DNA of 63,741 nucleotides, counting the filler, from Ferroacidibacillus organovorans (GTDB lineage: Bacteria; Bacillota; Bacilli; Alicyclobacillales; SLC66): assembly GCF_001642725.1 (NCBI RefSeq). It is 4 parts of 4 records of this genome, joined end to end, with 100 filler letters (N's around TTAATTAATTAA, not from the genome) between each part and the next. Parts side by side here need not be neighbours in the genome. Positions count along the whole stretch, not along the records: positions 33,539 to 49,065 come from NZ_LSUQ01000061.1; 3 more parts are not named here. The stretch is one strand, 5' to 3'. The stretch's first letter is position 1. Every line of letters begins with the position of its first letter. This document shows positions 26,558 to 57,603 of the stretch, in pieces. Made by a program: the position numbers and the translations under genes. The notes beneath the pieces are model-generated. The model was given only the letters and a program-made list of their open reading frames with translations. It had not been told where the DNA came from and made no database searches.

Positions 26558-26577
26558 AAAGTTGAGGGATATGGCGA

Positions 26578-27330: not shown

Positions 27331-27334
27331 GAGA

Positions 27335-33438: not shown

Positions 33439-33538
33439 NNNNNNNNNNNNNNNNNNNNNNNNNNNNNNNNNNNNNNNNNNNNTTAATTAATTAANNNNNN
33501 NNNNNNNNNNNNNNNNNNNNNNNNNNNNNNNNNNNNNN
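33439..33538. other. artificial contig linker
   Basis: N44-TTAATTAATTAA-N44. Confidence 0.98.
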
Positions 33539-33788: not shown

Positions 33789-34714
33789 ACCTTCATTCGT
33801 TCGCCCAGCGTCCCTGAGTGGAACTCAAGCTGCGTACCATCGGGATCGAGAAAATTGACGGTCCAACCTCCGCCACGCTCCACTGGGCCACGGGTAATTG
33901 AAACATTCATCGATTTCAGAGCACCAACGGCTGCATGCAATTCATCTTTCGGAGTATACAGCGCCACATGATCCACGCCGAGTTGCGGCGTAGCCGTCGG
34001 CAGCATGGGTCGCTCCTGTAGGCAAATCCAGGCTTTCCCCCATTCGAGGTAGGCATCCTGCAAAGCGCGATGTACAAGCTTCATCCCGAGCGTTCCAACG
34101 TAAAACGCAAGTGAACGTTCAAGGTCAGATACGTTGATGGTGATGTGGCTGAAACCCATGGTTGCGAAGCTGGACACGGGTTGCCGTTGGGGCTGGCCCT
34201 GTGAAGTGAGAAAGAGCACCATGTGGACTTCATCCCAAGAGTGAACCGCCGTCTTCATGGCGTTTGGTTCCATTCCATAGACCTGAAAGCCCACAGCCTG
34301 ATAGAGCGCCATCGCGGCGACGTTATCCTTCACAACGGAGAGACGAAGTTGCTCCACGCCATTCAGTTGCCGTGCCCGCTGAATCAAGTCAGCAAGCAGT
34401 TCGCGCCCTATCCCTTGCCGCTGAAAATTTGGTGACACAAACATAGCGACCACGTTCGCAATGTGGCGCGCCTTCGTTGCACGCTCTCGAACAAGTGTCA
34501 CCGTTCCCACCAGATGATCCGAATCATCGCCTACGTAAGCACCCACAGTAAAGTGATCGTCATCCGGTGTAAGCTGGTTGGTCACGTGTTCGAGGGGACG
34601 GGATAAATAATCGTCATACGTTGTGAGGAACGCTTCGGGATTAGTGGACAACGCTTGAAGTCGGAGATTTCGATAAGCTGATGCATCAACTGTATGAAGT
34701 ATGCGAATATCCAC
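33779..34714 (-). CDS. GNAT acetyltransferase - VOC/glyoxalase fusion
   Basis: QRQGIG...ALYQAVGF followed by GFSHITINVSDLERSLAFY...FLDPDGTQLEFH. Confidence 0.8.
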   Translation of the reverse strand: MDIRILHTVDASAYRNLRLQALSTNPEAFLTTYDDYLSRPLEHVTNQLTPDDDHFTVGAYVGDDSDHLVGTVTLVRERATKARHIANVVAMFVSPNFQRQGIGRELLADLIQRARQLNGVEQLRLSVVKDNVAAMALYQAVGFQVYGMEPNAMKTAVHSWDEVHMVLFLTSQGQPQRQPVSSFATMGFSHITINVSDLERSLAFYVGTLGMKLVHRALQDAYLEWGKAWICLQERPMLPTATPQLGVDHVALYTPKDELHAAVGALKSMNVSITRGPVERGGGWTVNFLDPDGTQLEFHSGTLGERMKVWK

Positions 34715-34742
34715 GCTTTCACACCCTCCTTCCGAACGAACG

Positions 34743-35720
34743 TCAACTCAGCAGAGACGGTAAATTTTGCATATTTTGAGCCAACCAGTCCATTTCGTGC
34801 GCAAATCGCTGAGGGGGTACTGTGTGCTGATCCATGTTCGGCGTGATCCACCAAGCGCTTTCCATATACCATACCATGCGAAGAGCTCGTAGAATCCCTC
34901 CTGTGGGATACTCGCGTTGCGTCCGATAACCGTCAAGGAAGCCCAGCGTGGCATCCACGTTGAATGTTTCACCATCAAGATTGCCTGACAGGATAGCCCT
35001 TGCGATATCCGTGTCAAGATAGTCGGCATTGAGTCGGTCAAAGTCTAAAATTGCCGACAACCCGTCGCCAGAGAAAAGCATGTTATCTGCCCAGAGATCG
35101 CGGTGCGCAAAGCCTATTTCGGCATTCCTAAATTCACGGATGTCGATAATCTGCAAGGCGTTTAATTGGCGCTGCGCGAATGCATACAGCTCATGTTTGT
35201 CATTCTGCTCCATGGCCTTTAAGACGTTTTCGAAGTGACGTATCCTCTCAGGTACTTCCGGGACCAAAAATGTCGCTTGGGTTGGAAAACCGCCGAGCAT
35301 GAGAAGGAATCGATGCATCTGTCCGGTGGCCGCACCGAGCGAATGCATCTGACCATAGGTGGCCTGGCCAGGAATGAATCTCTCTCCGTCGCAAAAGGTC
35401 ATGACCATGAATCGCTGCCCTGAGGGTGTCGAATGAAGCTGAGCTCCCTGATGCATCAGAATTTGTGGACAGGGTAGCCCCTGAGTATGTAGCTCAGACT
35501 GCCATCGAAGCGCTCGGACTAAAGCCGATTCATCATACAATCGATATCTGTCCGGATGGTAACTCTTAAGCAGAAAGACGCCATGCGTGGTGTCCAACTT
35601 CCATTTTCGATTCAGCCATCCACGAACAATCGGTTGCGCATCAAGAATAGTGAATTCAAACCATTTTTGACAGACCTCGCAAAGTTCATCAAACTCATGA
35701 TCATCAGGTCGCAGTTTCAT
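34743..35720 (-). CDS. phosphotransferase (homoserine kinase II / APH-like)
   Basis: HRDLWADN and ILDFD motifs. Confidence 0.82.
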   Translation of the reverse strand: MKLRPDDHEFDELCEVCQKWFEFTILDAQPIVRGWLNRKWKLDTTHGVFLLKSYHPDRYRLYDESALVRALRWQSELHTQGLPCPQILMHQGAQLHSTPSGQRFMVMTFCDGERFIPGQATYGQMHSLGAATGQMHRFLLMLGGFPTQATFLVPEVPERIRHFENVLKAMEQNDKHELYAFAQRQLNALQIIDIREFRNAEIGFAHRDLWADNMLFSGDGLSAILDFDRLNADYLDTDIARAILSGNLDGETFNVDATLGFLDGYRTQREYPTGGILRALRMVWYMESAWWITPNMDQHTVPPQRFAHEMDWLAQNMQNLPSLLS

Positions 35721-36116
35721 TCACCGACTTTCGATATTTTCCCATACTCGTTCCACAGTCGATTCCGATCCTCTCACCGTCACGAGATACACGTCCGGAT
35801 TCGTAAGCGCTGCCCCTGCCCCTGCCTCGAACCCGAATCGTTCATCGAAGTGTCTCAGCAGTGGCGTCATCAAATTGCCGTGCGTCACAACCACCGCGCT
35901 CCCTTGATTCAAAGCGAGCAGCTCGCCGCGCGCGTCGCCGCCGCAACCGTTCGCACCCCGATCGATGGCAATGCCAACTGCTGCCGTGAAGGACAGGATA
36001 TCAACGATGACCACGGTGTCGGATAGAGGGGCTAGACAAGCAAGCCCATCAAGGCCCCAATCAAAGCGCACCGCATAGGCCGATTGTTGGAAAACACCTT
36101 CGGTCGTCATCGTCAT
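35721..36116 (-). pseudogene. chimeric remnant: phosphosulfolactate phosphatase N-terminus plus histidine phosphatase C-terminus
   Basis: RFDWG..VIVDILSFT then VVTHGNLM..HFDERFGFE..LTNPDVY. Confidence 0.65.
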
Positions 36117-36190
36117 GTCACCCCAAGTTCCGATCGACAAGGTTGGCTGACACGGGTTCTCGTCCGAGGTCTCTTGCCCATATCGAAAGT

Positions 36191-37975
36191 GGTTCTTGCG
36201 ATCTTTTGGTGAACTCCGTCAGGAGAAGGTGTTGCCATCGACGTCTTTCGACAGCCTGACCCATCAGGCGTGATGAAGTACGCGGGCTCGCAGAAGATCG
36301 AAGCCAGCTCTGCCGAACATCTGTCGTTTGAGCATTTTCAAGCGATTGATCTGTCCCTCTAGTTGTCCATTACTCCATGGACCTTTGATTCCGGAAGATA
36401 CAGCGTCCAAATCCTTTTGTATGCCTCGGGCAAACGAACCCATCTCCTGTACTTGAGATTGCAACGCGGTCTCGACCCACCCACACAAGGGAGTACGATC
36501 GTGCGTGTCTAGTAGCAATCGAAAAGACATACAGAGGTCTCGGAGTTCTTGCGCACCCTTGACTTCTCGCAGCAATTGATCGCGGTACGCTCGATCGGAC
36601 GCCTTTACTTCGGATTCCTTCTGCGTTACGAGTACAGTGGCTTCGCGAGGACTCACACGCCGACGAGACTGCTCTATCAAGCAGGTGCCGCTCTGTAGAT
36701 CCTTCTTCCTCGTGTCCGCGAGATACTGCGCTACCGTGGTTCGGGATCCTATATAACCCATCTCTCGAAGGTGGCGCAAGATCTTCGGTCCCTTCATAGA
36801 CTGACGGGCAAGCTCACACACCGTCTCACGATATGGATCAAGTACCGTAGTTCTCTTGACACGGACCGTGTTTGGCACCTCATTCCATGTGAGATACTTG
36901 CCAATCGTTTGGCGACTGAGTCCGGTTCTTCGTGCGATCTCCCGTTTGCCCATACCCGACAGATGGAGTTGTTGCACCTCTTGTACCCGCTCCCACTTGA
37001 TTTCACGACGCATCGTTTTTGGATTCACCGTAGTCTGTGTCGTCTCATCAGGGGTCCCACTTGGTGCATCGGGTGCAGGTTCGGGGTCATCGTGCGCCGG
37101 ATGAGCGACGCGAGACCGCTTCTCTCGCAGGGGCAGACGTTGACGACTCAGAAAACGATGTACTGTCTCGCTGAGATTTTTCAAGAGATGCCATCGATCC
37201 GCAACCTGTTGCGCGTGCGGAAGTCCTTGGCGAATCGCCTGGGCATACGCCCCTGCGCGGTCGCGGCTGACAATCTGTATCGTCGGATGCCTGATCAACC
37301 ACGCGGCAACGGTCGCCACTCGGCGATCCGGCAGTACATCGATCACTCGGTGCTGTTCGAGGTCACAGATCAGTGTGCCGTATCGATCGCCTCTCCGATA
37401 TGCCCAATCGTCTATGCCGATCACACGAATTTCTTGCGGAGAAGTAGGTTCCGGATGTTCTGACTTTCGAATGCGCTGCAGCATCGTATCGCGACACACC
37501 TGAATTCCCATCTGTCTAGCCATGGCAGCCCCAGGGTTTCCTCCGAGTTCAAAAGCAAGGTGCGTCAATAAATCATTGAGTCGCGATGTCTTTCGCCCCG
37601 AGCGGGCGAATAGACCGGTAAATCGTTCCGTGAAAATGACTTGTGTGCAGGATGCGTTATCGCAAAAGAACTTACGACTGCGGATCCGCAATACCATGAG
37701 TTTATTACCGATTGGTAGATCTTGCACAGTCCGATAGTACAAGCTGTGTACTCGATGCGCCCATTGCCCACACTTTGGGCAATGGTTCCCGGTACTGTGA
37801 GATGCTACGCGAAACACAGTAAGACAATCGGAACGGTAGACATCTAGCAACTTCAGATCTGAGAGGAAGGATTCTACGATCTCATTCATCCTGTATCGCC
37901 TCCGATCTCATCGTATCAGGAGGGGCATACGAATGTTGTCGAATCATGGAACCTCACCAAAAGATCGCAAGAGCC
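36191..37975 (-). mobile_element. ISL3-family insertion sequence, complete
   Basis: Inverted repeats GG(T/C)TCTTGCGATCTTTTGGTGA; 8-bp target duplication TCGAAAGT at 36183-36190 and 37976-37983. Confidence 0.95.
36264..37889 (-). CDS. ISL3 family transposase
   Basis: CPKCG zinc finger, GIDDWA, SRDR, DRWHL, SNGQLEGQINRLKMLKRQMFGR. Confidence 0.95.
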   Translation of the reverse strand: MNEIVESFLSDLKLLDVYRSDCLTVFRVASHSTGNHCPKCGQWAHRVHSLYYRTVQDLPIGNKLMVLRIRSRKFFCDNASCTQVIFTERFTGLFARSGRKTSRLNDLLTHLAFELGGNPGAAMARQMGIQVCRDTMLQRIRKSEHPEPTSPQEIRVIGIDDWAYRRGDRYGTLICDLEQHRVIDVLPDRRVATVAAWLIRHPTIQIVSRDRAGAYAQAIRQGLPHAQQVADRWHLLKNLSETVHRFLSRQRLPLREKRSRVAHPAHDDPEPAPDAPSGTPDETTQTTVNPKTMRREIKWERVQEVQQLHLSGMGKREIARRTGLSRQTIGKYLTWNEVPNTVRVKRTTVLDPYRETVCELARQSMKGPKILRHLREMGYIGSRTTVAQYLADTRKKDLQSGTCLIEQSRRRVSPREATVLVTQKESEVKASDRAYRDQLLREVKGAQELRDLCMSFRLLLDTHDRTPLCGWVETALQSQVQEMGSFARGIQKDLDAVSSGIKGPWSNGQLEGQINRLKMLKRQMFGRAGFDLLRARVLHHA

Positions 37976-38368
37976 TCGAAAGTTGACCCATGTGGTGAAT
38001 TTCATGGGCAACGACGTGACGAAGGACATGTCCCCCCGAAAACGCTTCACCTGGTCGCCATGGCGCATGGACTTCTTTTGAGTCCCAATCCGGCGTCCAT
38101 TTTTCAAGCACGAAACGTATTTCAGGACGACATGTGTTGGACAGAGCGCGAACTCGGCATAGCGTCTGGTAATCCTCAAAGGGAAGCTGAACGTCGGGTT
38201 TTCCCTCCATCGCACGAATCCAACTGTATTCAGAATCTACAATGTGCCACAGGGTTCGTAAAAAACTCCCCACCCCGCCGATCCGCTGTCGGGTGAGTTC
38301 CTCGTCGGGTACGCCCTCACACCAGTCAAACCATTCCTCCCGAACCTGCCAGTTGTAGCGAAACAGCG

Positions 38369-38972
38369 TCAGCAACTCGACCCCTCCCTTGGATAGTCAT
38401 GAATCACACGCACCTTTGGCCATTTCTTCACAATTTGTTTGTCAGCGAGACGCTGCTCGAAAATCTGCTCAGTCACTCGCCGAGGATTTCTACGACAAAC
38501 CATCTCAAACAAATCGTTCATTCCACACGGTGCGACCATGAGAAGCTCATCATTATCAAGAAGACGGACGGCAATATTCGTCGCGGTCTCTGTCCATGTA
38601 CCAATCCCGTCTGCGGATGAGGAAAGCGGCTCAACAGGGAACCCAAACTTCCGCTCGTACCACAAGTGAACAGCCGCCTGATTCCTTGCCTGCCAGGGCA
38701 TCTTCGGCAGGAGATGATACAACACCCGCTCAATCTCCAAGTCTCTGTCCGGTTGTAAGTCTGTTGGATCAAAATATGCCACATCGATATCATTCAGCGG
38801 TGTCGGCGTAGAATCATCGTGTAACCAGTCCCACACCAGTGTGCGAATGACGCCCCCCGACCGGCCAATCCGGAGGATTGCATTCACGCACCACACGCAA
38901 GGCTTGCATGAACCAGTCCGTTGCGCGCAGCAATGCACGTAAATCGTGCTCATATTGACGATTGTCGGTCAC
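38369..38972 (-). pseudogene. DUF925 nucleotidyltransferase, frameshifted near a G run
   Basis: RTLVWD, DIDVAYFD, NQAAVH, ETAT; N-terminus in another frame. Confidence 0.78.
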
Positions 38973-39764
38973 GGCGCCACTACCTCAATCTTGAGTCGAT
39001 CGGGATCCTCAAAGAACACAGCGTAATGCCCTGCTCCACCCGCATACGGGTGTCTGTCTTCATACAAGACATGGGTACCCCTTGCACCAACTCCGCCCTT
39101 CAACCCAATTTTGGTAGGGTTTATAGCCGAGATATCCTAACAGCCAGCCCCAAAATTCGACTGACCTTTGGCGATTCGAAACATTGATTTCGACATGATG
39201 GAGCGTTCCTGAACGTGTAGAATGATTCGGGTGAAAGTCTGACTCTCGGGAACCTGCGATCAATTTGTAATAAATCACTGTCTCATCAAGCTGCCCATCC
39301 GCTGATCGAGCATACTGTGGAATTCGCCCGGCCTCCACAAAACTCAGTGAGCGGTACAAAGCATTGGACGGATCCCCGTCACGGGTGTCCAAGACAAGCA
39401 ATGAGCGATTCGCTTCCACTGCCGCTCGCTCTGCCACGTCCATCAACTGCTTAGCTATTCCCAATCTCCTTCTCTGCGGATGAACCATCAACTTGGCGAT
39501 CTCTGCCCTGTGTGCACCGTTTTGCTTCATGGTCAGATGCAATTGCACCGTACCTACGACTCCTCTATCGTAGTCTGCCACCCACAGGCGAACACTTGGT
39601 TCGAGGAGGTGTTCCCAATACAAACGAGCATCCGCACGCGTCAGTGGTGGCAAAAAGCCGATGGATGCTCCATCGTCTACAACGGAAATCAACAAGGAAC
39701 AGAGCATGTTCAGATCTTTTGTATTCCATTGCGCAATCTCACGGATGTGTAGTTCGTTTTCCAA
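38969..39764 (-). pseudogene. GNAT acetyltransferase fused to a damaged VOC domain
   Basis: GASIGFL, HRAEIAKLMVH, LVLDTRDGD; then LHHVEINVS; VOC tail YAVFFEDPDRLKIEVVAP follows after a stop and deletion. Confidence 0.75.
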
Positions 39765-39842
39765 ATAAATACCCCCATCCTCTGCTACATATTAATTCGC
39801 CATGCGTACAGGGGCGTTCGTTTGCCTTCAATCTCACAGAGC

Positions 39843-40283
39843 CTACCGTTTTGATGAGACATACAGAAATCGATATTTGCCATCATACGTGGATTGATTC
39901 TGCACTTCCCCATACTTTTCCTTCCAAACGTCGGTGTTCAAGTCATTTGCCAAACGCTTTACACACTGGTCAACCAGTCCTTTCGGTACTTTGGCAGACG
40001 GCGAAACACCCTGCCGAAACAGCGGATCCAAATACCACTCTGGATGCCTCCATCCTGTCATGAAGAATCTATCTCTCATGTCCGACGGCAACAGAAACGT
40101 TTCATCTGTAAAATGATGGACAGCCAGCGTGCTGATCACGCCATCAAAGGAATTGTCCTAGAGTGGGAGTTTTTCTGCACTGCCCGCTATATCCTTCTCC
40201 CCCAAATCAAACATCCGCATGTACTCATCATAGGTACGCCCAATGAAGATAAAATCGAAAAAGTTCAAATGACCTCTGCTCAT
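39843..40283 (-). pseudogene. SAM-dependent methyltransferase remnant(s)
   Basis: FIGRTYDEYMRMF then AEKLPL*DNSFDG..HHF and GWRHPEWYLDP; internal stop and deletions. Confidence 0.65.
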
Positions 40284-41542
40284 CTACCTCGACTCCTCTT
40301 GTCTGTGGGGATCGTTCAAAGTGACACATTGGTCCGGCTCATATGGATAACTTGTGGCAATTGGTCTCCATGTCAGACTGATTCCCACGTATAGCAGGTA
40401 CAAGAACGCTATCGCCCAGAACATTCCGGCTGGTCCGAGCCACGTCATCATCAAACCACAGACCATCGGCCCTACCATTAGACCGAGCCCAAGATTAGTT
40501 ACTGCAATCTGGTTGGCGATCGGCAGATTGTTTGACCCAACAAGATCACCGAGGAAGCCAAGACTCAAACTGAACAATGTGTCAACGAATGCTCCGACGA
40601 GGAAGCATAAAGCGACAAACGTCACGTTTGAATCGGACACAAGCGGTAAGCAAGCTGAACAGAACTCCCCCTGCCGTTGAGCACCCTATCAGAACCATCC
40701 GCCGACCCAAACGATCGCCCAAATAGCCCAGTGGTAGCTGAAATATAAGGCTACCGAACACAAACGAAGCTAACGAAAGTGACACGACTCCAAGCGGCAG
40801 ATGAACCTGTTCGGCATACAAAGGAAGGTCCCCGTTTAACGCCGGCTCCATAAACCCGAATACCAATGGGAGCGCTAGTGCTGGCAGGGCGACTCGATAA
40901 ATCCGAGCGACTCTGATTGAGCGTACAGACCTCGCTGACTTGCGGTTCCCCAGAACGCAAGGTAAACGCACGACTAAAGCCAAGGAGATGGCAAAAGTAG
41001 AGGCCGACAAGTATGAATGGGAACCACACCGCCAGTTTCCCAGTCGCCAGAAACATCGGACCAACCGCAAATCCGATGCCGGTAGCTAAGCCATACAGAG
41101 CCATCTGCTTACCACGATTTTCCGGCGTGGTGAGGCATCCAATCCAAGACTGCGTACCATAGTGGATCGCCCCTAGAGACAAGCCAAACACGAAACGAAA
41201 CAGCAACCACCACTGCACGTTGTCTCTCACCACGAACGCGCAGATGGACAATGTTCCTGTCGCAAGCGCCCATACCAACAATCTACGAAGTCCAATCCGA
41301 CGAGAGAGCTGTCCCACGAAAACCATGGCGACAAGCAAACCGGCATAAGTATCACTGGTACTCAGACTGTTCATCAACGGAGAAATGTGTCCCGCTTCCA
41401 CAGATGCCATCCACGGAATCATCAGACCTTGACTGAACGTCACCGCCATGGCGGCAAAAATCAATGCGACGAACGTACGGGCATGTTTTTGTGGGATAAC
41501 GCCGGTTCCAAAACGCATCTTCTGTTCGCCGCCTCCCATCAA
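40284..41542 (-). pseudogene. MFS transporter (YfkF-like), split across three frames
   Basis: NRGKQMALYG and QLPLGYLGDRLGRR motifs; overlaps the trpS stop. Confidence 0.78.
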
Positions 41543-42561
41543 TCACGAGCCTCATCGTAGTCCAATCGATAATTCAATCCCATTGCCTCACGGACTTCCC
41601 TCATCGTTTCCTTTGCAATTTCCCTCGCACGTTTTGTACCGGCAATCAGGATTTCATCAGCCATGCGTGGATTGGCTTCATAGGCCACCCGGCGCTCACG
41701 CATGGGTTCCAGTAATTCATTGATTCTGCCGGCAATCCACCGCTTGCATTCGACGCAACCCATTGTCCCTGACCTGCATCCAGTAGCGACCTCATCGGAT
41801 GTGCCCGCTGCGAACGCTTGATGATATGTGAAAACAGGACACACTTCTGGATGTCCGGGATCCGACTTGCGAATTCGTGCAGGATCCGTAACTGCGACTT
41901 GAATCTTATCCCGCACTTCTTGGGCCGATGCATCCAGCGTGATCGCATTACCCATACTCTTACTCATCTTGCTTTTTCCGTCCAAGCCGACGAGTCTTGG
42001 CACCTCTCCGACGACGGCCTTCGGCTCAATCAGAACTGGCGCATACAGCTCATTGAAGCGGCGAACGATTTTTCGGGTTTGCTCAATGTGCGGAACTTGA
42101 TCTTCTCCTACCGGAACCAAAGTCGCCTTGCAAAACGTTATGTCGGCCGCCTGACTGACTGGGTAACCCAAGAATCCATAGTACAGTTGATCGTATCCTC
42201 GTTCGGCTGCCTCAGACTTCACCGTCGGGTTATGGCGCAGTGAATTGACCGTGACAAACATGGAATAGAAGATTGTGAGTTCGGCGATTTCAGGCACGAG
42301 AGATTGAACGAAAATCGTGGCCTTCTCCGGGTCAATGCCCACCGCCAAATAGTCCATCGCAATCTGACGTAGATGTTGTTCGATTTCCTTTGGGGATTCA
42401 AAATGTGTAGTCAGTGCTTGAACATCCGCAAGCAGGATGAAGGTGTCATACTTCTGTTGCATGTCAATGCGATTTTTCAGGCTGCCGACATAATGACCGA
42501 GGTGCAACTTCCCAGTGGTGCGATCTCCGGTCAATACCCGTTCTTCGTAATTGCTCTGCAT
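41539..42561 (-). CDS. trpS: tryptophan--tRNA ligase (auxiliary/type II-like)
   Basis: TGDRTTGKLHLGH, YPVSQAADI, VPVGEDQ, KMSKS. Confidence 0.95.
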   Translation of the reverse strand: MQSNYEERVLTGDRTTGKLHLGHYVGSLKNRIDMQQKYDTFILLADVQALTTHFESPKEIEQHLRQIAMDYLAVGIDPEKATIFVQSLVPEIAELTIFYSMFVTVNSLRHNPTVKSEAAERGYDQLYYGFLGYPVSQAADITFCKATLVPVGEDQVPHIEQTRKIVRRFNELYAPVLIEPKAVVGEVPRLVGLDGKSKMSKSMGNAITLDASAQEVRDKIQVAVTDPARIRKSDPGHPEVCPVFTYHQAFAAGTSDEVATGCRSGTMGCVECKRWIAGRINELLEPMRERRVAYEANPRMADEILIAGTKRAREIAKETMREVREAMGLNYRLDYDEARD

Positions 42562-42622
42562 TCATATCACTCCTGTTTTGTGAGTTGAATTTTGTCTTGA
42601 ACCACCACCAACCATCGCTCAC
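42464..42622 (-). CDS. putative Trp-sensing leader ORF (MSDGWWWF..., 52 aa)
   Basis: GAGGAGGT SD just before GTG; TGG x3 at 42602-42610; overlaps the trpS start out of frame. Confidence 0.55.
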   Translation of the reverse strand: MSDGWWWFKTKFNSQNRSDMNAEQLRRTGIDRRSHHWEVAPRSLCRQPEKSH

Positions 42623-42654
42623 ACCACCACCTCCTCGTTTCACGGGCCAAAATT

Positions 42655-42945
42655 GAATACAAAAAGGCCCCACATCCGCCAAGGGACGTGAGACCGTGGT
42701 GCCACCCTAATTCGCCGGGGTATGCCCGACGCACTTTAGAGTACGGAGACCAACGAAACAAAAATGATCTCGATACCTGCCTCTTGGTAACGGAGAGGCA
42801 CGCCCGGCAAGGCATACTGCCACAATGTGGGTTCAGCCAGCGACTCAGAAGTCCATTCGACATCCTATGCGTATCGGCTCACACCATTCGCCGACTCTCT
42901 GGAACGCACGTGGTATGCGTACTCGTCTTCGTCAAAGTCAATCCG
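42655..42945 (-). ncRNA. T-box riboswitch, Trp specifier
   Basis: AGAGA and GGTGTGA stem I motifs; specifier TGG at 42853-42855; AATTAGGGTGGCACCACGG T-box; terminator hairpin plus T run. Confidence 0.93.
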
Positions 42946-42959
42946 TTGGAATTTGTTTC

Positions 42960-42989
42960 ATGATACACAGGGACGATCAATTTCGTCAA
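42960..42989 (-). promoter_or_regulatory. sigmaA-like promoter of the T-box leader
   Basis: TTGACG-N18-TATCAT. Confidence 0.55.
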
Positions 42990-43008
42990 CGTCAGGATTT
43001 CTTACAGT

Positions 43009-43773
43009 TCAATTCTGAATCCGTTGGAAGGTTTTTCTACGATTCGCTTCTTCCACAAACGCCTTCAGTCCATCACAATTTTTCTGAATGAATGTCGTCC
43101 ACAGCGTTCTCCCCATTTCGGTCAACTGTTCAGGTGTATAACTCCCAGCGACAAATTCTCCCCAATTCCCGTCACGGGTTAGTTTCTCCCATCCTACGAT
43201 GTCAGCAAATTTGTTGTTTTCGACGGGAACTGGTGAACCCGCAGACTGCGGTTTCACGTATTCCGGGCAGAGAAACATCACCGTACAAAGTCCAATAAGC
43301 CCTCCATGAATCTCATTGCGACCAGTCAGCCCGGCAATTTCCAAGGCTTCTTCGAACGCACCCCGTTGATGGTGTGGATGCACCACAACGATGTCTTTAT
43401 ACTTGAAATTCGTATGCTTAATGAAAGAGGCTAACCAGTATGAACCACCGTGACCAGACGTGATCACAAACTTTTTGAACCCCTGACGGCGCAGATTCAT
43501 AATCATATCTTCAACGAAAGCACTGATGACACTCGGACTGACGGTTACTGTGCCTTTGAAGGCTGCATGTTCCTCTGAGGTATTAAACGGCAGAACTGGC
43601 AGAACGTAGGCATTCAGGGCCTTACCATACTCGTTACCATAAAGTTCCGCAATCAACGTATCTACGTGCATTGGCAGCGTCGGGCCAAATTGTTCGGTTG
43701 CTCCGAGTGGGATCACGACTGTATCGACACGACTCGCCATTATCTCCGTCGTTGTGTTGGTATGATTTAGCAT
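43009..43773 (-). CDS. creatininase family protein
   Basis: PLGATEQFG, SEEH, SGHGG, EIHGG. Confidence 0.82.
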   Translation of the reverse strand: MLNHTNTTTEIMASRVDTVVIPLGATEQFGPTLPMHVDTLIAELYGNEYGKALNAYVLPVLPFNTSEEHAAFKGTVTVSPSVISAFVEDMIMNLRRQGFKKFVITSGHGGSYWLASFIKHTNFKYKDIVVVHPHHQRGAFEEALEIAGLTGRNEIHGGLIGLCTVMFLCPEYVKPQSAGSPVPVENNKFADIVGWEKLTRDGNWGEFVAGSYTPEQLTEMGRTLWTTFIQKNCDGLKAFVEEANRRKTFQRIQN

Positions 43774-44038
43774 ATACTCTCTCCTTCTCGATGAAGTGCT
43801 TGAACTTGGCGTCACGAGGAACATCTCTGTCATGTTTAGGGACCAATCATTTTCATCATATAATTTTCTCCGTGAGTTACCCTAGCGGAAGCGGTATGTT
43901 CTGCACAAAACCCATTGAACACGCGGTATCAATACATACGCGTGTATTAACGTTCCTGCCTTCTGTTAGTATTGCAACTGCTACTGTTCCTGCCTGAGCG
44001 TGTTTCAAAAGTTCACGAGGATTCAACACAGACTGCAC

Positions 44039-44071
44039 CCATTGCGCAATACTGCCTTTGAGTTCAATAAC
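44039..44071 (-). repeat. putative cassette recombination site
   Basis: Minus strand GTTATTGAACTCAAAGGCAGTATTGCGCAATGG. Confidence 0.6.
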
Positions 44072-44153
44072 TGCTGTTCAGCCAAAATGGGTATTTATGC
44101 ATGATAGTCGACCCGATCCGATTCGCCCAAAGCTTACTCTCCTGCTTTATGAA

Positions 44154-44998
44154 TTAGAGCACGTTCGCTTGGACGTACCAACTGAGTGCGCGCAACCGTT
44201 CGTCGATCTTTTCAATCAATCCACTATCGACTTGTTTCCACTTCAAAAGAAAATATAGGCTGCGAAGAAAGTGTTCCAAATTCGTGAGTCGAATGGTGTC
44301 GTCCGGTTCAGGTCCTTCCGGCTTAATAAATCTATTCATCCAATCCTCAATGCGTCGGCGGTGACCCATCCCTTTTTGATGATTCGACTTGCTGTAAACG
44401 CCAGTCTGTCGTCTTCTTGAAAATAGATTGGATTTGAAACTGATGCCAAATCCGCCACACAGTGAAGCACCTCCAGCCGCTCCATCTCGGTGGAAAATGG
44501 ATGTTGAGCGCAACTGTCCAGCGCATCCGCCGCATGTGCAATAGTATGCGCCCAACCTTTGCCATCGATGTAGCCGCGACGGTCGCGTTCCTCCCTCGCA
44601 TAGGACAACACACTGCGAATGGTGTCGTGCACTAGATCCGCACTCAGTTGCTGGTGTTCTATGTCAGGATCGAGAATTAATGGTACAACAAGAATTGAGA
44701 AGCCTCGTATAAAAACTGAATCGGTTACGGATTCACCAATTCGATAGAACAGGTGTTGGTCATCCAATGCAACCTTTAATAGCGTTTGACGATCCTCAAC
44801 GCTTAGGAAATGATATTCTGTCAGCAAACGCGCCAACAGGGAGTAGGACAGTCTATCTCGCAAACGGGCGTCAGTTGAACGGAAATTTTCAACCAATGCC
44901 AGACAGAACGCCAACAGGTTCGTGCCAGTAGGAAATTGGCAATCGTTATCCATGATTTTAGATAAGAGTTCCGCATTGTGTGCTCGATTCTGCGTCAT
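44154..44998 (-). pseudogene. DUF2785 domain protein, frameshifted near 44345
   Basis: RGYIDGKGWAHTIAHAADAL and EDDRL; tail HFLRSLYF in another frame. Confidence 0.8.
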
Positions 44999-45113
44999 TA
45001 GGTCCTCCATGTGAAAATGATGACAACAAATAACGCGAGACAGGTTGGACTGCGTTATCACATTGTCCCTCTCAATGATTTTTAATCTGATACTCAAAAT
45101 TCTACATGAGTTG

Positions 45114-45145
45114 CTATTCTATTAACTGCCCGAGAGCTAAAGATG
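45114..45145 (-). repeat. putative cassette recombination site
   Basis: Minus strand CATCTTTAGCTCTCGGGCAGTTAATAGAATAG. Confidence 0.65.
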
Positions 45146-45539
45146 GGCAACAAATTGACTACGCATGTTTATACACCAGACCACTTCATTGCATTCTTGC
45201 AGATCAGCACCCTTTAGAGACAGAGGGAAAGGATTATTTTCAAACACCCTTCGTCTTTGAAGTGTCTCACAATTTGGGGCTACCAAGTTTCCCCTACAGT
45301 CAACGAATCGGCATGTTCGAATTCAACGGTATGTAGTTCATTCAAACTGCTTTATCTGTTCTACGACGACCAGACTCTATCTTCAAAAGCCGTGGAAATC
45401 AACCGAACGATACCATACGATGTTTCACCTGTTCGAAGATGAAGAAGAATTTCTACTCCCGGACATCTTGAAAATCCACTTCATGGAAATCCCCAAAGTT
45501 ATAGTGAACTAGCATAGGAACGCTGTCAATCTTCACGAA

Positions 45540-45690
45540 AACATGCTCGTCCACGTAATCATAAATTTGGACTTCCTGCTTTGACACATATAATCGGTGA
45601 AGACGTCCGGCGTATTGCTGTACTGTTCCCTTCCGCGAAATTGGCATGGCCAGAAATAGAGTATCAAGACGAGCATCATCAAAGCCTTAA
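45540..45690 (-). pseudogene. DEAD/DEAH helicase C-terminal fragment
   Basis: GFDDARLDTLFLAMPIS..QYAGRLHR..IYDYVD. Confidence 0.7.
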
Positions 45691-45808
45691 AGGGTCACAG
45701 TGAATTAAGAAAAATTCATGGGGATATCAGCTATAGAGTCAACTACATCGTCAGCCATCGATAAATCTTGATTCCCGGAATTCACATTTTGATAACCAAT
45801 AAACTTCA

Positions 45809-46102
45809 TGATTTTAAGTCAATACGGTGGACACACCAAACAATGGATATATAAAAATTCAGTCCCAATTTCAGCAGACAGTATAGACTCTATTACTAAA
45901 CTTCCTTAGACTGATAATACATAGTATGGAATTGAGCAGGGGTACGGTAGCCAATGGAAGAGTAAATCCGCCTGCGGTTGTACCACAGTTCAATGTATTC
46001 CCAGATGTCTCGCTTCGCTTGAACTCGTGTTGTATCTAACTCAAGGTGTATCAGTTCTCGCTTGATGACGCTGCGCAAAGATTCGATACACGTATTATCC
46101 AA
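45809..46102 (-). mobile_element. IS3-family remnant (integrase C-terminus plus right end)
   Basis: DNTCIES..IKRE..YIELWYNRRR..SSIGYRTP; terminal GTGTCCACCGTATTGACTTAAAATCA. Confidence 0.8.
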
Positions 46103-46416
46103 CGCTTTCGGATGTTGCAGTTGATCACGCTTCGGACATGGCTTCGCTTTCGCTGACCTTAGCAGTTCGTCGAGTCTAGCCCCGCGACTTGGGAGGTTGG
46201 TTCCCCCTCACGGATACATTGTTTGATGGGCTTCACACCCTGTCTGCTCAAACTCAACGCATACCATCCTTGCCTTGACGGGATGAGATACCCACCAACT
46301 ACCAAAGTTGGTGTCTTCAATACATAGCGCCTCATGGCGCACTGGATTCTTCTGCCTAAGACAGCAATAATACTCAAAGCCGTCTAATGCTCGGTTTTTC
46401 TGAACGAACATGAGGC

Positions 46417-46448
46417 GTTATGTATTTACGTCCCCATTTAGGAACCGC
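46417..46448 (-). repeat. putative cassette recombination site
   Basis: Minus strand GCGGTTCCTAAATGGGGACGTAAATACATAAC, just after the oxidoreductase stop. Confidence 0.5.
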
Positions 46449-46451
46449 TTG

Positions 46452-47435
46452 TCACTCACTAACCGTCAATAACACCTTTCCAACGCTGTGTCTTCCCTCT
46501 ACAACTCGATGGGCTTCAGCTGCATCCTCTAATTTAAAGCGATGCCCAACTTTGATTTTTAATCTTCCGTTCGACAGATACCCAAAAACGTGATTCGCAG
46601 TATCACGAAGAAGATAAGGTCTTTCTTTTCGTGTCGTACCTAAGCTAAAACCTAAGACTGAACGACAGCTTGAGTGCAGGTCACTTGTTTGAAAATGCCC
46701 CACTTCACCACTTGAATTCCCAAAATGAATCAGGCGTCCATAATTAGCAAGGCACTGCAAACTCTTCTCAGAGACCGACCCTGCAACCGAATCCAAAATA
46801 ACGTCAACACCTCGACCGTCGGTGATCTCCTTAACTTTGATTGAGAAATCTTCTGTGCCATAGCAAATCACATGGTCGCAACCAGCCTCAAGGGCAGTTT
46901 GGAACTTAGATTCATTGCCCACTGTACCAATAACACAGCTTGCTCCTAGAATTTTTGCTAGCTGTGATGCAGTGGTTCCAACACCCCCAGCCGCTGCATG
47001 AATCAAGACCATTTCTCCTTGTGTCAATCTTGCTACATCGGCAAGTAACTTGTAAGCAGTAAAGGAAACAATTGGACACGCCGCCGCAATTTCAAAATGC
47101 AAATTGTCAGGGATTACAAAGGTGAGCGATTCATTTGCAACTACATATTCAGCGTAGGAGCCGTTCAGGGGAAAAGCGATAACTCGTTGTCCAACTTTCA
47201 GATTGTGAACTTCATCACCAAGTTCTTCAATCACCCCTGCGACATCTAATCCGGGTATGAACGGAGGATGATTACCTCCGCTCTTATTACCATAGCGAGC
47301 TTTCACGTCGGCAAAGTTTACACTTGTCGCAACGGTGCGAATCAATACCTGAGTTGCCTTTGGTGCCGGCGTATTCACATCTGTGTAGTGCATGACATCT
47401 GGTGTTCCATAATCGGTTATGACGACTGCTTTCAT
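46452..47435 (-). CDS. NADPH:quinone oxidoreductase (MDR family)
   Basis: SVNFAD, PGLDVAG, HAAAGGVG, GKVLL; lower GC than neighbours. Confidence 0.9.
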   Translation of the reverse strand: MKAVVITDYGTPDVMHYTDVNTPAPKATQVLIRTVATSVNFADVKARYGNKSGGNHPPFIPGLDVAGVIEELGDEVHNLKVGQRVIAFPLNGSYAEYVVANESLTFVIPDNLHFEIAAACPIVSFTAYKLLADVARLTQGEMVLIHAAAGGVGTTASQLAKILGASCVIGTVGNESKFQTALEAGCDHVICYGTEDFSIKVKEITDGRGVDVILDSVAGSVSEKSLQCLANYGRLIHFGNSSGEVGHFQTSDLHSSCRSVLGFSLGTTRKERPYLLRDTANHVFGYLSNGRLKIKVGHRFKLEDAAEAHRVVEGRHSVGKVLLTVSE

Positions 47436-47515
47436 ATATTGTCTCCTCCCGTACAGTTAGAAAATAATAAATTTAGTTATTCAATTCTGAATTTAAAACC
47501 GATTATTGGAATTGG

Positions 47516-47584
47516 CTCTCTCCAAAATTGCCCCTGTTTTCGTATGGCTCGCTGTTGAAGATAACTGCCCGAAATCGGCGTAGG
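47516..47584 (-). repeat. integrase-proximal site pair (candidate attI-like site at 47552-47584)
   Basis: Minus strand CCTACGCCGATTTCGGGCAGTTATCTTCAACAG then CCATACGAAAACAGGGGCAATTTTGGAGAGAG. Confidence 0.65.
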
Positions 47585-47726
47585 CCGACTCGCTCAGTTC
47601 GCATATTCTTACAACTTCTCTGCATAAGAGTCGCCATGTGTGGATCACTCAATGCCAGGTTTTCCGCGCTCTCCAAGCATCGTTTCCCTCAGTATACACG
47701 GCGACGATTGGTTTTGCAGACATTCA

Positions 47727-48562
47727 TCACTGCACGAAATATCGCTGATATGCTTGTTGGCGTATGGTGCCACTAAGGGATGCGTACAGCTGCGTGGTCT
47801 CTGGTTTCTCATGGCCCAAAATAGACTGCACGGCAACAAGGGGTGCGCCCTGATTGAGCAATACGGTTGCGAGGGTATGGCGAATCTTGTGGGGGCTGAT
47901 CTTGGTTTGCAAGTCGGATCGATTCGCGGTCCGATTGAAAATATACTCAATCTGATGAATCGACATCCGGTGCGGTTTTCTCTCGGTCACAAACAGCGCC
48001 ACATCCTTATCGCCGCGATAATTCAGATACCGCTGTAACCATATGCGGGCCTTCGAGCCGAAGTACACCTCTCGTTCCTTGTTTCCTTTCCCGATCACGT
48101 TCACACTCCCGCGCTGCCAATCAATCGCACTACGATCGAGTTTGTAAATCTCCCCCACCCGACATCCCGTGGCGAAGAAGAATTCCACGAGCGCATGCTC
48201 CAGGACACTGGTGCAAGAATCCCGCAACATTTCTAGTTCATCGATGGTGAGTGCCTTTGGCACACGTTTTCCAAGCTTCGGTTCCTTCAACTTCATGGTC
48301 GGATTGCGCACGAGGAGATCCTCTTCCACCAACCACTTGAATTGAACAAACTCATGATGGCCCGTACATTATACCCGAGACTGCTCGCTTTCAAATGCAT
48401 GTGCTGCTGCAGATGTTCCCGCAGTTGTTCCGACGTGATCGTGTCCCCGATGTCTTTTATCAACTGGTGATGCTGCACCCGGTACGCCTTTACTGTATAG
48501 GGCGAATACCCCTCCTGCGCCTGGAGGGTCAGATATCAGTTGGACGCATCATGCAATCGAAT
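47727..48562 (-). pseudogene. XerC/D-type tyrosine recombinase, about 280 aa, inactivated
   Basis: TGCR, GKG, HKIRH, LGH, TQLY catalytic set; N-terminal YSPYTVKAY; TGA at 48536-48538; TTCAA duplication frameshift at 48337-48346. Confidence 0.9.
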
Positions 48563-48594
48563 GAAGAGGCCCCCTTTCAGGGCGCTATTAACTT

Positions 48595-49035
48595 TCAGAA
48601 TAAAGACATCACTGCACAGAAGAGGATCGTCGACACGAGGACAAAAACCACTATGGGCAGTCCCCTTCTTGGTGTCGGTTGGTAGCCATCGAACCACGTA
48701 TTTTTTGACCGCCGTACTATAGACCTTGGCAAAGAGCAACGCCAGTCACCATATGAACAGCGTGGGCAGCACACCGAGTGCTGCCCGCAAACCATGGCCA
48801 TCTTCCAGTTCCCCTGGCCCCAGAGTCCAAGAAGCGTCGGAACGAGAAGCAGCAGTCCGGTGCAAACGAAGGCGAAAAACGCCTCTTCTCCCGAACCAAC
48901 ACCGAAGTGCAACGCCAAAAAGAGCCCCAGTCCAAACAGGTTCAGGACGTTTGGAATTCGCCGTTCCCGAATGTCAAACCGCGCCGCCACAAGGGCAAAT
49001 GCGATAAACGCGATCCCAATCCATAGTGGCTTCAT
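48595..49035 (-). pseudogene. A24 prepilin peptidase-like gene, degenerate
   Basis: DIRERRIPN; GQGNWK in place of GxGDxK; hydrophobic pattern breaks down in the 3' half. Confidence 0.65.
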
Positions 49036-49065
49036 AATTGCAGTTCCGTGATAGATCGATAATCC

Positions 49066-49165
49066 NNNNNNNNNNNNNNNNNNNNNNNNNNNNNNNNNNN
49101 NNNNNNNNNTTAATTAATTAANNNNNNNNNNNNNNNNNNNNNNNNNNNNNNNNNNNNNNNNNNNN
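49066..49165. other. artificial contig linker
   Basis: N44-TTAATTAATTAA-N44. Confidence 0.98.
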
Positions 49166-55309: not shown

Positions 55310-57603
55310 ACCCATCCATTAAGAAAGAGAAGCGTGATCCTGCCGAGAGATTCACCTATTACCACCTGGCGTTACCGACGGACAACACGACGACCCCGAA
55401 GCAGGCGCACACCTTGATTCAGTCCCTCGCAGAAATCGGATGGCAGAAAGGCAAGCTTGGCTGGCAACGTCCTCTTCCCTTTCGGTTCCTGCTGCTGAAA
55501 GAGGCGGGGCAATCGACGGTTCGGCTTCTGTTTGGCATCCCGGCGTCTCGCGACGACTCGTTTCGCTCGGCGTTTCGTGTCTCTTATCCACACGTGCACC
55601 TGATTTCCGAACCAAGCCCTTTTCCGACATCGCCTGCAGTAGACCGACGTGCCCTCGCCATCGCCTTTCGCAAGGGCGGACAGGGCCTGGAAACCTGGTT
55701 GCCCCTAGCCTCGTTTCGAATTGGCGGCCACGGCGACCCGCTCGACGGGATTCTAGTCGCCATGGGGCAGGACACCGCGAGCCAATGGGTGCTCGAAGTC
55801 TGGATGACGCCGATGCGCGACAGACGATTTCAGCGGGTCATCGCCGCCAAGAGCCGACCGCCCGGACAAAAGGGCGGCTCTGGGTTCTCGCTTTCCGAGG
55901 TGCTCTCAGAAGTGTTTGGCACGTCTCCCCGTCCCAAGCAACCAGTGCATCCTGCGCCCGATCCGTACGTCAACATCCGTCCCCTTGTGCAATCCCGCAT
56001 CAAGGCTACCGAGCGCCCCTTTCAGGTGTCCGTTCGTCTTCTTGCCACCGGATCCACCAGTGCTCGGGGTCATCTGCACGCGATGCTCAGCGCCATGGCG
56101 CAACTGCGAAGCGAGGGTCGACTGGTGCCGAGTCGAATCGGCAAACGACGCCTGGCCAGGGCGATGCAACGTGGTACCGCGACGCGGCCGATGTGTTGGA
56201 CTTCCGGAGAACTGGCGTCGCTTGTCCACCTGCCAGATCATGAACACCCTGGATTTGCGCACGTCGTCACGACGCAGGGGATTGTCCTGCCGCCACCTCC
56301 CGCTCTGACCAAGGGACTGCGGCTTGGCTGGTCCAACTTCCCCGGCGCAGAGGGCCGCGAGATTCACATTTCGCTTGGACAGGCGGCCAAGCACACGTTT
56401 CTCGCCGGGGCCACGGGCTCTGGCAAGACAACGACGCTGCTGCACATCATGCTCGGCATGGTCGAGGAGATGAAAGTCCATCCGGACACGGCGCCTGGCT
56501 TCACGTTCTTCGATCCGCATGGCGGCGCAATCGAACGACTCTTGTCCCACATCCCACCTTCTCTGCACGACAAGGTGCATCTGATTCCCCTCGGACCCAC
56601 GCCGTTCCCACGTGGACTCAACCTATTTCGCATGGAGCACAAGTCGGACGCGGAGGCCATCACAGGAGAGTTTGTCACCACCCTGCAGGAACTCTGGCCG
56701 GGATCGCGGCCACGCTCGGAGCATTATCTTCGCAACAACGTGCTCTCCTTGCTGAGCGCCCCGCCCCAAACGGTGCTTGGCATCGCGCACCTGTTCTCGG
56801 ATGATCGCTTTCGCGACCGGATCGTACCGAACCTTGCGCCCCACCTGCAGCAATTCTGGACCGGGGAATTTGCAGAAATCCGCAATATCGCGGATCACCT
56901 GGGCCCCCTTTGGAACAAGCTTGGCGCGCTCACGACCTACCCATCGCTGCGTCGGATTCTCGGCCAGACCAAAAGCGCCGTCGACACGCGCACCATTATG
57001 GATGACGGGCACATTGTGCTCATCGACGGGTCGGGCTGCACCACGGACGCCGTGAAAATCATCGCCGGTCTCTACCTCATCGACCTGCACTTCACCTGCA
57101 AGCGACGCCCCGAGCACCGGTCTCGACTGCACATCTTCTTTGGCGATGAGAGCCACCTCTATGCGGTCAACGTGCTGCAAAAAATCCTCGCCGAAGACCG
57201 CAAATTCGGCCTGTCGCTGTTCTTGGCCACGCAGTACTTGGACCAACTTCCCGACCCCATCCTAGCGGGCATTCTCGGCAACGTCGGCACGCTCATTTTG
57301 CTGCAGCTGGGGGGCCCGGATGCGGATCGGTTGACCCGGTGGCTGAAACCGGACGTGTCGTCGCGCGACCTGATGGCGCTCCCGGAGATGAACGCGCTCG
57401 TGCGTACGAAGCAGGACGGCGGTGCGACGGAACTGTTCTCCATGCAAAGTCCGCTCATGCCATCAGGCAATGCGGCATGGGCAGAGCAGGCAAAGGCACA
57501 TTCGGATGAGGCAGATGGCCGTCCCGCCGAACAGGTCGACGACGACATTCTGGCCATGTATCCCCCCGCAAAAGTCCGGGGAACCAACACATTCCAGACC
57601 TAA
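55306..57603 (+). CDS. VirD4/TraD-like type IV coupling ATPase
   Basis: GATGSGKT, FDPHGG, GDESH, EDRKFGL, ATQYLDQ, GNVGT. Confidence 0.85.
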   Translation: MNPSIKKEKRDPAERFTYYHLALPTDNTTTPKQAHTLIQSLAEIGWQKGKLGWQRPLPFRFLLLKEAGQSTVRLLFGIPASRDDSFRSAFRVSYPHVHLISEPSPFPTSPAVDRRALAIAFRKGGQGLETWLPLASFRIGGHGDPLDGILVAMGQDTASQWVLEVWMTPMRDRRFQRVIAAKSRPPGQKGGSGFSLSEVLSEVFGTSPRPKQPVHPAPDPYVNIRPLVQSRIKATERPFQVSVRLLATGSTSARGHLHAMLSAMAQLRSEGRLVPSRIGKRRLARAMQRGTATRPMCWTSGELASLVHLPDHEHPGFAHVVTTQGIVLPPPPALTKGLRLGWSNFPGAEGREIHISLGQAAKHTFLAGATGSGKTTTLLHIMLGMVEEMKVHPDTAPGFTFFDPHGGAIERLLSHIPPSLHDKVHLIPLGPTPFPRGLNLFRMEHKSDAEAITGEFVTTLQELWPGSRPRSEHYLRNNVLSLLSAPPQTVLGIAHLFSDDRFRDRIVPNLAPHLQQFWTGEFAEIRNIADHLGPLWNKLGALTTYPSLRRILGQTKSAVDTRTIMDDGHIVLIDGSGCTTDAVKIIAGLYLIDLHFTCKRRPEHRSRLHIFFGDESHLYAVNVLQKILAEDRKFGLSLFLATQYLDQLPDPILAGILGNVGTLILLQLGGPDADRLTRWLKPDVSSRDLMALPEMNALVRTKQDGGATELFSMQSPLMPSGNAAWAEQAKAHSDEADGRPAEQVDDDILAMYPPAKVRGTNTFQT

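Follow-up and report, generated by a model that had tools for sequence, protein, structure and literature searches.

Integrons are the textbook gene-capture platform, defined by the integrase IntI and by folded attC sites. Binding, cutting and exchange through a Holliday junction are established tyrosine recombinase chemistry, and inverted arms around a short spacer are the layout of dif, lox and other tyrosine recombinase core sites. In XerS and XerH systems the dif site adjoins the recombinase gene. At the Mycoplasma vpma and vsa loci, and with Rci of R64, a simple tyrosine recombinase lies beside a multi-gene locus whose members carry its short site; in phase-variation loci and shufflons, inversion between inverted sites switches expression among the variants of one gene family. 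The sites of the pdif modules alternate in orientation. Complete integrons were not found in Firmicutes genomes by Cury et al. 2016 (PMC4889954), and Escudero et al. 2016 argue that IntI retains an ancestral double-strand exchange inherited from ordinary tyrosine recombinases. The pdif modules of Acinetobacter are accessory genes bounded by dif-like palindromic Xer-type sites and shuffled between replicons. Here we analyse a stretch of 63,741 nucleotides from Ferroacidibacillus organovorans (assembly GCF_001642725.1; hereafter the window), in which a pseudogene of a 280-aa, Xer-related tyrosine recombinase heads a tract of genes separated by short directional sites. We consider it likely that this tract is an integron-like cassette platform, built from an Xer-type recombinase and double-stranded dif-like sites, of which the source genome carries a dead copy.

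The window is a concatenation of contigs C58, C59, C61 and C63 of the source assembly (98 contigs, 3.03 Mb, 52% G+C; completeness 96.8%, contamination 0.38%). Throughout, C denotes contigs of the source assembly, L the loci compared, P homologous proteins and X sequencing runs. The recombinase gene and its array occupy the terminal part of C61 (window 33539-49065), with about 500 nt remaining to the contig end.

An earlier note on this DNA had described a tyrosine recombinase of about 280 aa reading toward the tract, with its catalytic residues kept and its 5' part damaged by a stop codon and a 5-nt duplication. The minus-strand reading, the PF00589 match and comparison with the intact 280-aa homolog P0001 bear this description out. 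Over the C-terminal 204 residues the translation is 94% identical to P0001, which served as the reference for four lesions: ATT stands at the position of the start codon (48560-48562), an in-frame TGA replaces the ninth codon (48536-48538), a 12-nt in-frame deletion near 48442 removes four residues, and a duplication of TTCAA at 48337-48346 shifts the frame. The stop codon lies at 47727-47729. The translation retains the catalytic residues R, K, HxxR, H and Y, which fall on invariant columns of a 26-member family alignment (R137, K164, H227, R230, H253 and Y262); together with the PF00589 domain they place the protein in the tyrosine recombinase superfamily. Homologs 73-94% identical are found in Alicyclobacillus species and in Bacillota metagenome-assembled genomes, which points to an Alicyclobacillaceae-like source organism.

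A second copy of the recombinase, on C83, is 96.8% identical over 1503 nt. It carries the same stop, internal deletion and 5-nt frameshift as the C61 copy, and no start codon precedes that stop. C8 has a short remnant, and the source assembly contains no intact member of the family. In the isolate-like run X1 the two head types have similar depths (121-172 and 197); for this reason a mixture of strains was set aside as the explanation of the two heads, and we take C61 and C83 for two loci within a single genome, a reading that Logan contigs cannot prove. Contigs of runs X6 and X7, and a low-depth contig of X1, show CACA inserted into a CA repeat of the recombinase gene (window 48260) and a 1-nt deletion in the upstream peptidase-like gene (window 48655). 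The head module decays differently among related strains.

The family to which the recombinase belongs was judged from profile scores. The intact P0001 reaches 208 bits against the XerC model (cut-off 335), 185 bits against XerD (cut-off 330), 186 bits against archaeal XerA (cut-off 220) and 84 bits against the IntI model TIGR02249 (cut-off 265, with 73 bits for the fragment in the window). The nearest solved structure is E. coli XerD (1a0p, 4e-31), Vibrio IntI4 reaching only 1e-10. By these scores the family appears to be a separate Xer-related clade, neither the housekeeping Xer pair nor an integron integrase. One might propose that such an Xer-like protein, with a dif-like palindrome next to its gene, is a single-recombinase system for chromosome-dimer resolution of the XerS or XerH kind. 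We regard this as hardly credible, given that a dimer-resolution system has one site per replicon and one conserved gene copy. Here one genome may have two or three copies of the gene (A. fastidiosus has three loci, and so has A. ferrooxydans), each genome has tens of sites, arranged in arrays, and the family is also found on a plasmid. Furthermore, the source genome encodes its own XerD (381 bits) and an XerC-like gene (308 bits), both intact, while the gene under study is a pseudogene.

A recombinase beside a primary site, followed by an array of single-gene cassettes with functions of the chromosomal-integron type, might also be taken for an ordinary integron, with an IntI integrase and folded attC sites. 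That explanation is refuted on both of these defining features, and we rate it very improbable. The IntI profile is matched in two pieces, 12-179 and 234-299, between which the protein (P0001 and P0006) has only about 15 residues; about 40 profile positions in the region ~180-233 are left without a counterpart. We take this unmatched region to be the IntI-specific domain, for which the earlier note had judged the protein too short. In the source genome, none of 18 profile matches is above the IntI cut-off. As for folded sites, the source genome contains a ~110-nt intergenic element that ends in the site motif, in 19 copies on 9 contigs and in a single orientation within each contig. Just one of 14 such junction elements folds, as a single strand, better than all of its shuffles (z < -3), and RNAalifold gives no long consensus stem, only 8 local pairs, so that the element was rejected as an attC-like hairpin or imperfect palindrome with paired R and L boxes. 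Nor do the arms of a site covary (4.29 matches of 11, against 4.54 with shuffled partners). Such behaviour is expected of double-stranded palindromes whose arms are read by protein, rather than of hairpins, and it agrees with the short double-stranded sites that the earlier note had proposed. That note had also pointed out that the recombinase is co-directional with its cassettes, unlike class 1 intI; gene, sites and cassettes are indeed all on the minus strand, and arrays in relatives are mostly co-directional too. The absence of complete integrons from the Firmicutes genomes of Cury et al. 2016 (PMC4889954) argues in the same direction.

Detection of the sites depended on how they were defined. 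The short core TAACTGCCCG, with at most one mismatch, gives 7 matches against 2.8 expected, barely above chance; AAYTGCCC is only marginally above chance, and GGGCAG alone shows no genome-wide enrichment. These near-chance counts led us to reject the short core as a sufficient definition and to require a longer one, a 34-column weight matrix built from 20 sites of the source genome. At 16 bits or more, the matrix gives 38 hits in the genome against 9 in a reversed-genome control. The 38 strong hits cluster on 9 contigs, and 30 of them have a same-strand neighbour within 5 kb (none of the 9 in the control), with only 5 having one on the opposite strand. This is not the arrangement of a shufflon, in which inverted sites flank invertible segments.

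Across 78 distinct sites from the source genome and its relatives, the consensus is TTcTTGCGCTtTC GGGCAG gAaAGttCAAtAA. Each site is about 32 bp long. Its two arms, of 13 nt each and inverted at 10 of 13 positions in the consensus, flank an asymmetric 6-bp spacer that is the most conserved part of the site. This is the build of an Xer-type core site, with inverted arms of about 11-13 nt and a spacer of 6-8 bp. The left arm includes a TGCGC motif, which we take to resemble an Xer arm. Junctions in the source genome usually hold two site-like halves about 85 nt apart: the first, with spacer GGGTGC or GGGGxC, comes right after a stop codon, and the second, of the GGGCAG type, comes before the next gene.

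On C61 itself, the earlier note had listed five sites in the same orientation, the first about 145 bp after the recombinase stop, and had them bracketing the quinone oxidoreductase and DUF2785 genes. Three of the five (the primary, the GGGCAG-type and the last site of Table 1) are supported by the matrix. The other two, at 47516 and 46417, score -4.7 and -8.0 and are therefore dropped; a model of the second site type also misses both. The primary site begins 142 nt past the stop, close to the distance given, and the coordinates of sites and genes agree with the bracketing. The head site recurs on C83 and on C59, where the copy is 24/27 identical (89%; window 22324-22350 against 47564-47590). 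Elsewhere in the assembly, C9 858-891 and C96 5956-5989 form a head-type pair, identical on the left as far as the GGGCAG spacer and unrelated to the right of it.

In order to see the recombinase and the sites outside the source genome, we scanned 37 related loci, from Alicyclobacillus, Sulfobacillus and Bacillota metagenome-assembled genomes, with the matrix at 13 bits or more. Downstream of the recombinase there were 35 hits on its own strand and 2 on the opposite strand; upstream there were 9 plus and 11 minus hits. It is important to note that the 35 same-strand hits include 4 from the duplicate locus L047, a copy of L046, and that some of the upstream-minus hits belong to a second, opposed recombinase copy (for example in L015). 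The first site lies 56-145 nt past the stop in L012, L013, L016, L017, L021, L023, L039 and L046, and the motif can be seen by eye in L018, L019, L020 and L037. Thus the family is consistently followed by a site and by site-delimited variable genes, which the earlier note had made the question to ask of its relatives. A primary site next to the gene, with cassettes bounded by sites running on from it in one direction, is a mark of integron systems that these loci share.

The spacer differs by lineage: GGGCAG in the source genome, GGGCC(G/A) at the L046 head and one array site, and TGGCAG on plasmid CP053689.1. This plasmid (locus L096, 8121-18766; 31.5% G+C) encodes a 50.5% identical recombinase, site-flanked within an array of small genes. 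The array includes two NUDIX genes and has two site types at each junction. The name of the record is 'Arthrobacter citreus NEB 577', for which the low G+C is odd.

If the sites are points of crossover, homology between arrays should end at them. The module of peptidase-like gene, recombinase and leader is common to C61, C83 and L012 (83-97% identity), and the three are unrelated right after the spacer; the homology of C61 with C83 and L012 stops at 47563-47565. The first cassette of L012, a GNAT gene, recurs in the C72 array at 89.6% identity, where it follows immediately upon a degenerate spacer and extends to the next site. L013 (A. ferrooxydans TC-34) and L018 (A. fastidiosus DSM 17978) both have an APH cassette that starts at the spacer; the recombinase genes of these two loci, and of L021 in the latter strain, are intact. 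When 19 array regions totalling 135 kb were compared by blastn, 15 of the 46 distinct end points fell within 10 nt of a spacer centre, against 0.5 expected and a maximum of 3 in 200 randomisations.

These end points also bear on the possibility that the repeats are intergenic regulatory elements, or elements like repetitive extragenic palindromes or miniature inverted-repeat transposable elements, which spread by other means and lie near the recombinase as a by-product of variable islands. The junction elements are always intergenic, by eye they contain a -10-like TATGAT preceded by TG and a weak -35, and a junction of plasmid CP053689.1 contains a terminator-like hairpin. However, such elements would not be expected to mark the ends of homology at the spacer, nor to lie so strictly on the strand of the recombinase (35 against 2), and a consensus promoter scan found no excess over expectation. 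The junction element was accordingly rejected as a promoter, the by-eye remark being all that spoke for one, and the explanation as a whole seems to us quite improbable.

Compared with a hidden Markov model of the junction element, the heads of C61, C83 and L012 match its positions 51-111 (E ~3e-4), whereas shuffled heads give 0 hits. The 3' end of the recombinase gene resembles a site as well, but the match is not significant (E ~6; 13.8 bits). In Alicyclobacillaceae bacterium I2511 (L040 10589-10622), the 3' end of the recombinase gene appears fused directly to a cassette-type right arm, with an altered C-terminus. We mention as a lead only that a site may overlap the stop codon of the recombinase.

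Returning to the cassette platform that we favour, its mechanism would run as follows. In a pair of double-stranded sites, recombinase subunits would bind the arms, cleave where arm and spacer meet and exchange strands through a Holliday junction. Because all the sites of an array point the same way, the DNA between two direct sites would be excised as a circle, and the circle would re-enter at the primary site, 56-145 nt past the recombinase stop. The asymmetric spacer would set direction, and two spacer types per junction would stop its halves from recombining together. We infer that the sites are acted on by the 280-aa protein and not by host XerC/D or by one of the serine recombinases nearby.

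Several observations weigh against this reading. Large serine recombinase genes adjoin the arrays on C72, C41 and L012. The scores of the seed sites are circular, the matrix having been made from sites of the source genome, and at 14 bits or more the reversed control gives 18 hits genome-wide. Two site-like halves per junction are not predicted by a simple one-site cassette model, and the promoter scan found 8 at junction elements against 12.2 expected. On plasmid CP053689.1 the array genes are on the strand opposite the recombinase. In Trueperaceae and Symbiobacteriaceae, the loci of recombinases about 55% identical gave no sites by matrix or repeat search and nothing clear by eye, and the association of family and site may therefore hold for only part of the family. 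Lastly, C61 and C83 share their lesions and differ in their first cassettes. This combination fits poorly with a dead enzyme and a frozen array, unless we allow for gene conversion, for duplication with other rearrangement, or for another enzyme acting in trans.

Another possibility is that the sites are real recombination sites that serve a different enzyme, either host XerC/XerD or the large serine recombinases, with the 280-aa recombinase a passenger or itself a cassette. The source genome has the XerD and XerC-like genes noted above, the left arm of the sites has its TGCGC motif, serine recombinase genes lie beside some arrays, the recombinase gene is itself flanked by sites in CP053689.1, L013 and L017, and the first cassettes of C61 and C83 differ despite identical lesions. 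Nevertheless, the head site stands at a fixed short distance past the stop of this particular recombinase in at least 8 distinct loci, and the spacer changes together with the recombinase lineage. With regard to the serine enzymes, a 13-6-13 layout is typical of the sites of tyrosine recombinases and not of those of serine recombinases. We consider the different enzyme unlikely, and continue with the cassette platform served by its own recombinase. The features of the window are collected in Table 1.

Table 1. Recombinase, cassettes and sites in the window. Positions count along the whole window; bits are weight-matrix scores.
Feature	Position	Strand	Evidence or remark
Pseudogene of 280-aa Xer-related tyrosine recombinase	47727-48562	minus	Pfam Phage_integrase, E 1e-36
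A24 prepilin-peptidase-like gene, upstream of recombinase	48595-49035	minus	Pfam Peptidase_A24
Head leader, recombinase stop to primary site	47585-47726	minus	last ~60 nt resemble 3' half of junction element
Primary (head) site	47551-47584	minus	31.4 bits; spacer GGGCAG, read as CTGCCC on plus at 47565-47570
Cassette 1, intact NAD(P)H quinone oxidoreductase, 327 aa	46452-47435	minus	Pfam ADH_N, ADH_zinc_N; TIGR02824 1-325 of 325
Weak candidate site near threshold	46338-46371	minus	14.4 bits
IS3-type transposase remnants (rve core fragments)	45896-46411	minus	Pfam rve_2, rve_3 on 45899-46102
Segment common to C61 and C83	45690-45805		
Methyltransferase cassette fragment	45283-45407	minus	blastn 82.5% over 126 nt to 23162-23941
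Inter-cassette junction element	45112-45225	minus	nhmmer match C61 11584-11679; second-type site 45193-45225 (HMM E 6e-6, seed copy)
GGGCAG-type array site	45112-45145	minus	17.0 bits
DUF2785 cassette, frameshifted	44157-45097	minus	Pfam DUF2785, E 7e-33
Last array site	44038-44071	minus	20.7 bits, not a seed
Head-type site on C59	22330-22363	plus	31.2 bits; no recombinase gene upstream
Second array, C59: GNAT, methyltransferase, DUF2785, unknown gene, GNAT, alpha/beta hydrolase	22386-27368	plus	
Same-strand sites of C59 array	23032-23065, 25105-25138, 25673-25706, 27335-27368	plus	

The C61 array spans 3.5 kb (44038-47584). Compared with run X4, the IS3 remnants carry indels at 46241 and 46413 that shift the frame. 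At 45453-45650 there are helicase-like and Rpn-like fragments, identified by eye only, and the methyltransferase fragment has an intact paralog on C59 (Pfam Methyltransf_11). The frameshift in the DUF2785 gene is real and strain-specific: one C is absent at 44347, the extra C is present in X4, X6 and X7, and it is found in 0 of 172 depth in X1, the probable source run. Upstream of the recombinase, the frame of the peptidase-like gene covers only the first 80 of 104 Peptidase_A24 profile positions, and the gene lies within the stretch that C61 has in common with C83 (1503 nt) and with L012 (1490 nt). Past the last site the sequence passes into core genes, with a creatininase-family gene (Pfam Creatininase), a T-box (RF00230) and trpS.

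Because every copy of the family found in the assembly is broken, the C61 array is probably no longer shuffled by its own enzyme; loss of the enzyme would then have frozen the array, as the earlier note had supposed. The independent metagenome X4 has the same C61 arrangement at 99% identity or more. This fits stasis, but X4 may be merely the same strain. Contigs of four runs contain no joints between two sites that skip a cassette, a result that is uninformative either way given that contigs drop rare forms and that the enzyme is dead here. For the window itself, then, the C61 region is best described as a decayed and probably inactive array.

In the source assembly, heads stand on C61, C83 and C59, with the remnant on C8, and further arrays on C72, C2, C41, C25, C86, C21, C3, C9 and C34. 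Across the genomes compared, arrays are mostly co-directional with the recombinase and have one or two genes per slot. Their cassette genes include many GNATs, together with methyltransferase, DUF2785, alpha/beta hydrolase, MFS, metallophosphoesterase, DinB, HAD, MerR/TipAS, glyoxalase, caspase-like peptidase, RidA, isochorismatase, APH, NUDIX, histidine phosphatase and polysaccharide deacetylase genes. In L013 the slot that follows the head site (11089-11720) is taken up by a Fic/Doc-type gene and a MazE-type antitoxin, on the opposite strand, an orientation also seen for toxin-antitoxin cassettes of chromosomal integrons.

We made a number of further observations in and around the arrays. 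A block of cassettes is duplicated in tandem in L013 of A. ferrooxydans (14422-18532), where frames of 87, 152 and 205 aa each occur twice; in the same locus, the sites at 16946 and 18499 have identical left arms and different right neighbours. The arrays of C59, C83, C86 and L012 all enter one stretch of about 217 nt that contains a 5' fragment of a DUF255/thioredoxin-domain gene (76-91% identical; window 27442-27760, L001 8367-8745, L094 1-216 and L012 9308-9524), and several contigs break there. A group II intron reverse transcriptase/maturase, with a second fragment, lies inside or beside the array of C86 (L094 5305-8190), and one is also present in the array of L096. A multi-copy sequence of about 1.4 kb occurs in the window (28819-30198, on C59) and on C56, C68, C46, C69, C72 and C41. 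It is about 70-74% identical to the part of L012 that codes for a large serine recombinase of 497 aa. On C72 and C41, where it lies beside arrays, it encodes Resolvase, Recombinase and Zn-ribbon domains, and the C59 copy is without a long open frame.

Outside the arrays, the window contains ordinary Bacillota features, namely the T-box upstream of trpS (42679-42944) and a c-di-AMP riboswitch (8937-9074). These two were the only matches in an Rfam scan of the window, which found no RNA family within the arrays. Window 32196-33436 and 56307-57548, on different contigs, form an inverted pair of about 1.2 kb in total, with arms of 899 and 166 nt that are 72-73% identical, and are probably two paralogous genes. 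The contigs are joined by three linkers of the form N44-TTAATTAATTAA-N44 (17044-17143, 33439-33538 and 49066-49165), across which adjacency is biologically meaningless.

More tentatively, we raise as a serious possibility that the system is an undescribed 'double-stranded integron', either independently evolved or of ancestral type: an Xer-derived family of Bacillota that would capture, store and reshuffle single-gene cassettes by way of 32-bp dif-like sites, with the recombinase gene sometimes a cassette itself. A search of the full-text literature, whose coverage excludes subscription journals, found work on integrons and on Acinetobacter pdif modules, and no such arrays described in Alicyclobacillus or other Bacillota. 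If the proposal is correct, these loci would be either a living example of a simpler double-strand state or an independent invention of integron logic. They would amount to a cassette platform that does without the single-stranded attC innovation, a question that can be tested in cultivable Alicyclobacillus strains. They would also hold a large unannotated pool of cassette genes in Gram-positives (acetyltransferases, phosphotransferases, detoxifying enzymes and toxin-antitoxins), and the compact recombinase and its 32-bp site might serve as a genetic tool.

How, then, does the C61 type compare with the known systems? From shufflons and phase-variation loci it differs in that its sites are direct and its genes mutually unrelated. 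XerC/XerD, XerS, XerH and XerA are its nearest relatives by sequence and structure, and share with it the inverted arms around a 6-bp spacer. Unlike the Xer systems of dimer resolution, however, the family falls below every equivalog cut-off and is multi-copy, with many sites per genome; these sites bound variable genes, and the recombinase is dispensable, being a pseudogene here. The Acinetobacter pdif modules are similar in that accessory genes are bounded by dif-like palindromes. They are thought to use the host XerC/XerD and have no dedicated recombinase at their head, whereas the C61 type has a dedicated, non-XerC/D recombinase adjacent, and its sites are all direct. Integrons differ from the C61 type in several respects. 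The C61-family recombinase is outside IntI and without the IntI-specific stretch; its sites are double-stranded palindromes of 13-6-13 layout that lack both hairpin potential and covariation; its junctions often carry two site types about 85 nt apart; its hosts are Bacillota; and, in contrast to class 1 integrons, the recombinase gene runs in the same direction as the cassettes. What the C61 type shares with integrons is the organisation of the locus: a tyrosine recombinase gene beside a primary site, followed by a one-directional array of mostly single-gene, site-bounded cassettes, with boundaries at a fixed crossover point and with cassette functions (GNAT, NUDIX, glyoxalase, DinB and toxin-antitoxin) of the kind that integrons carry.

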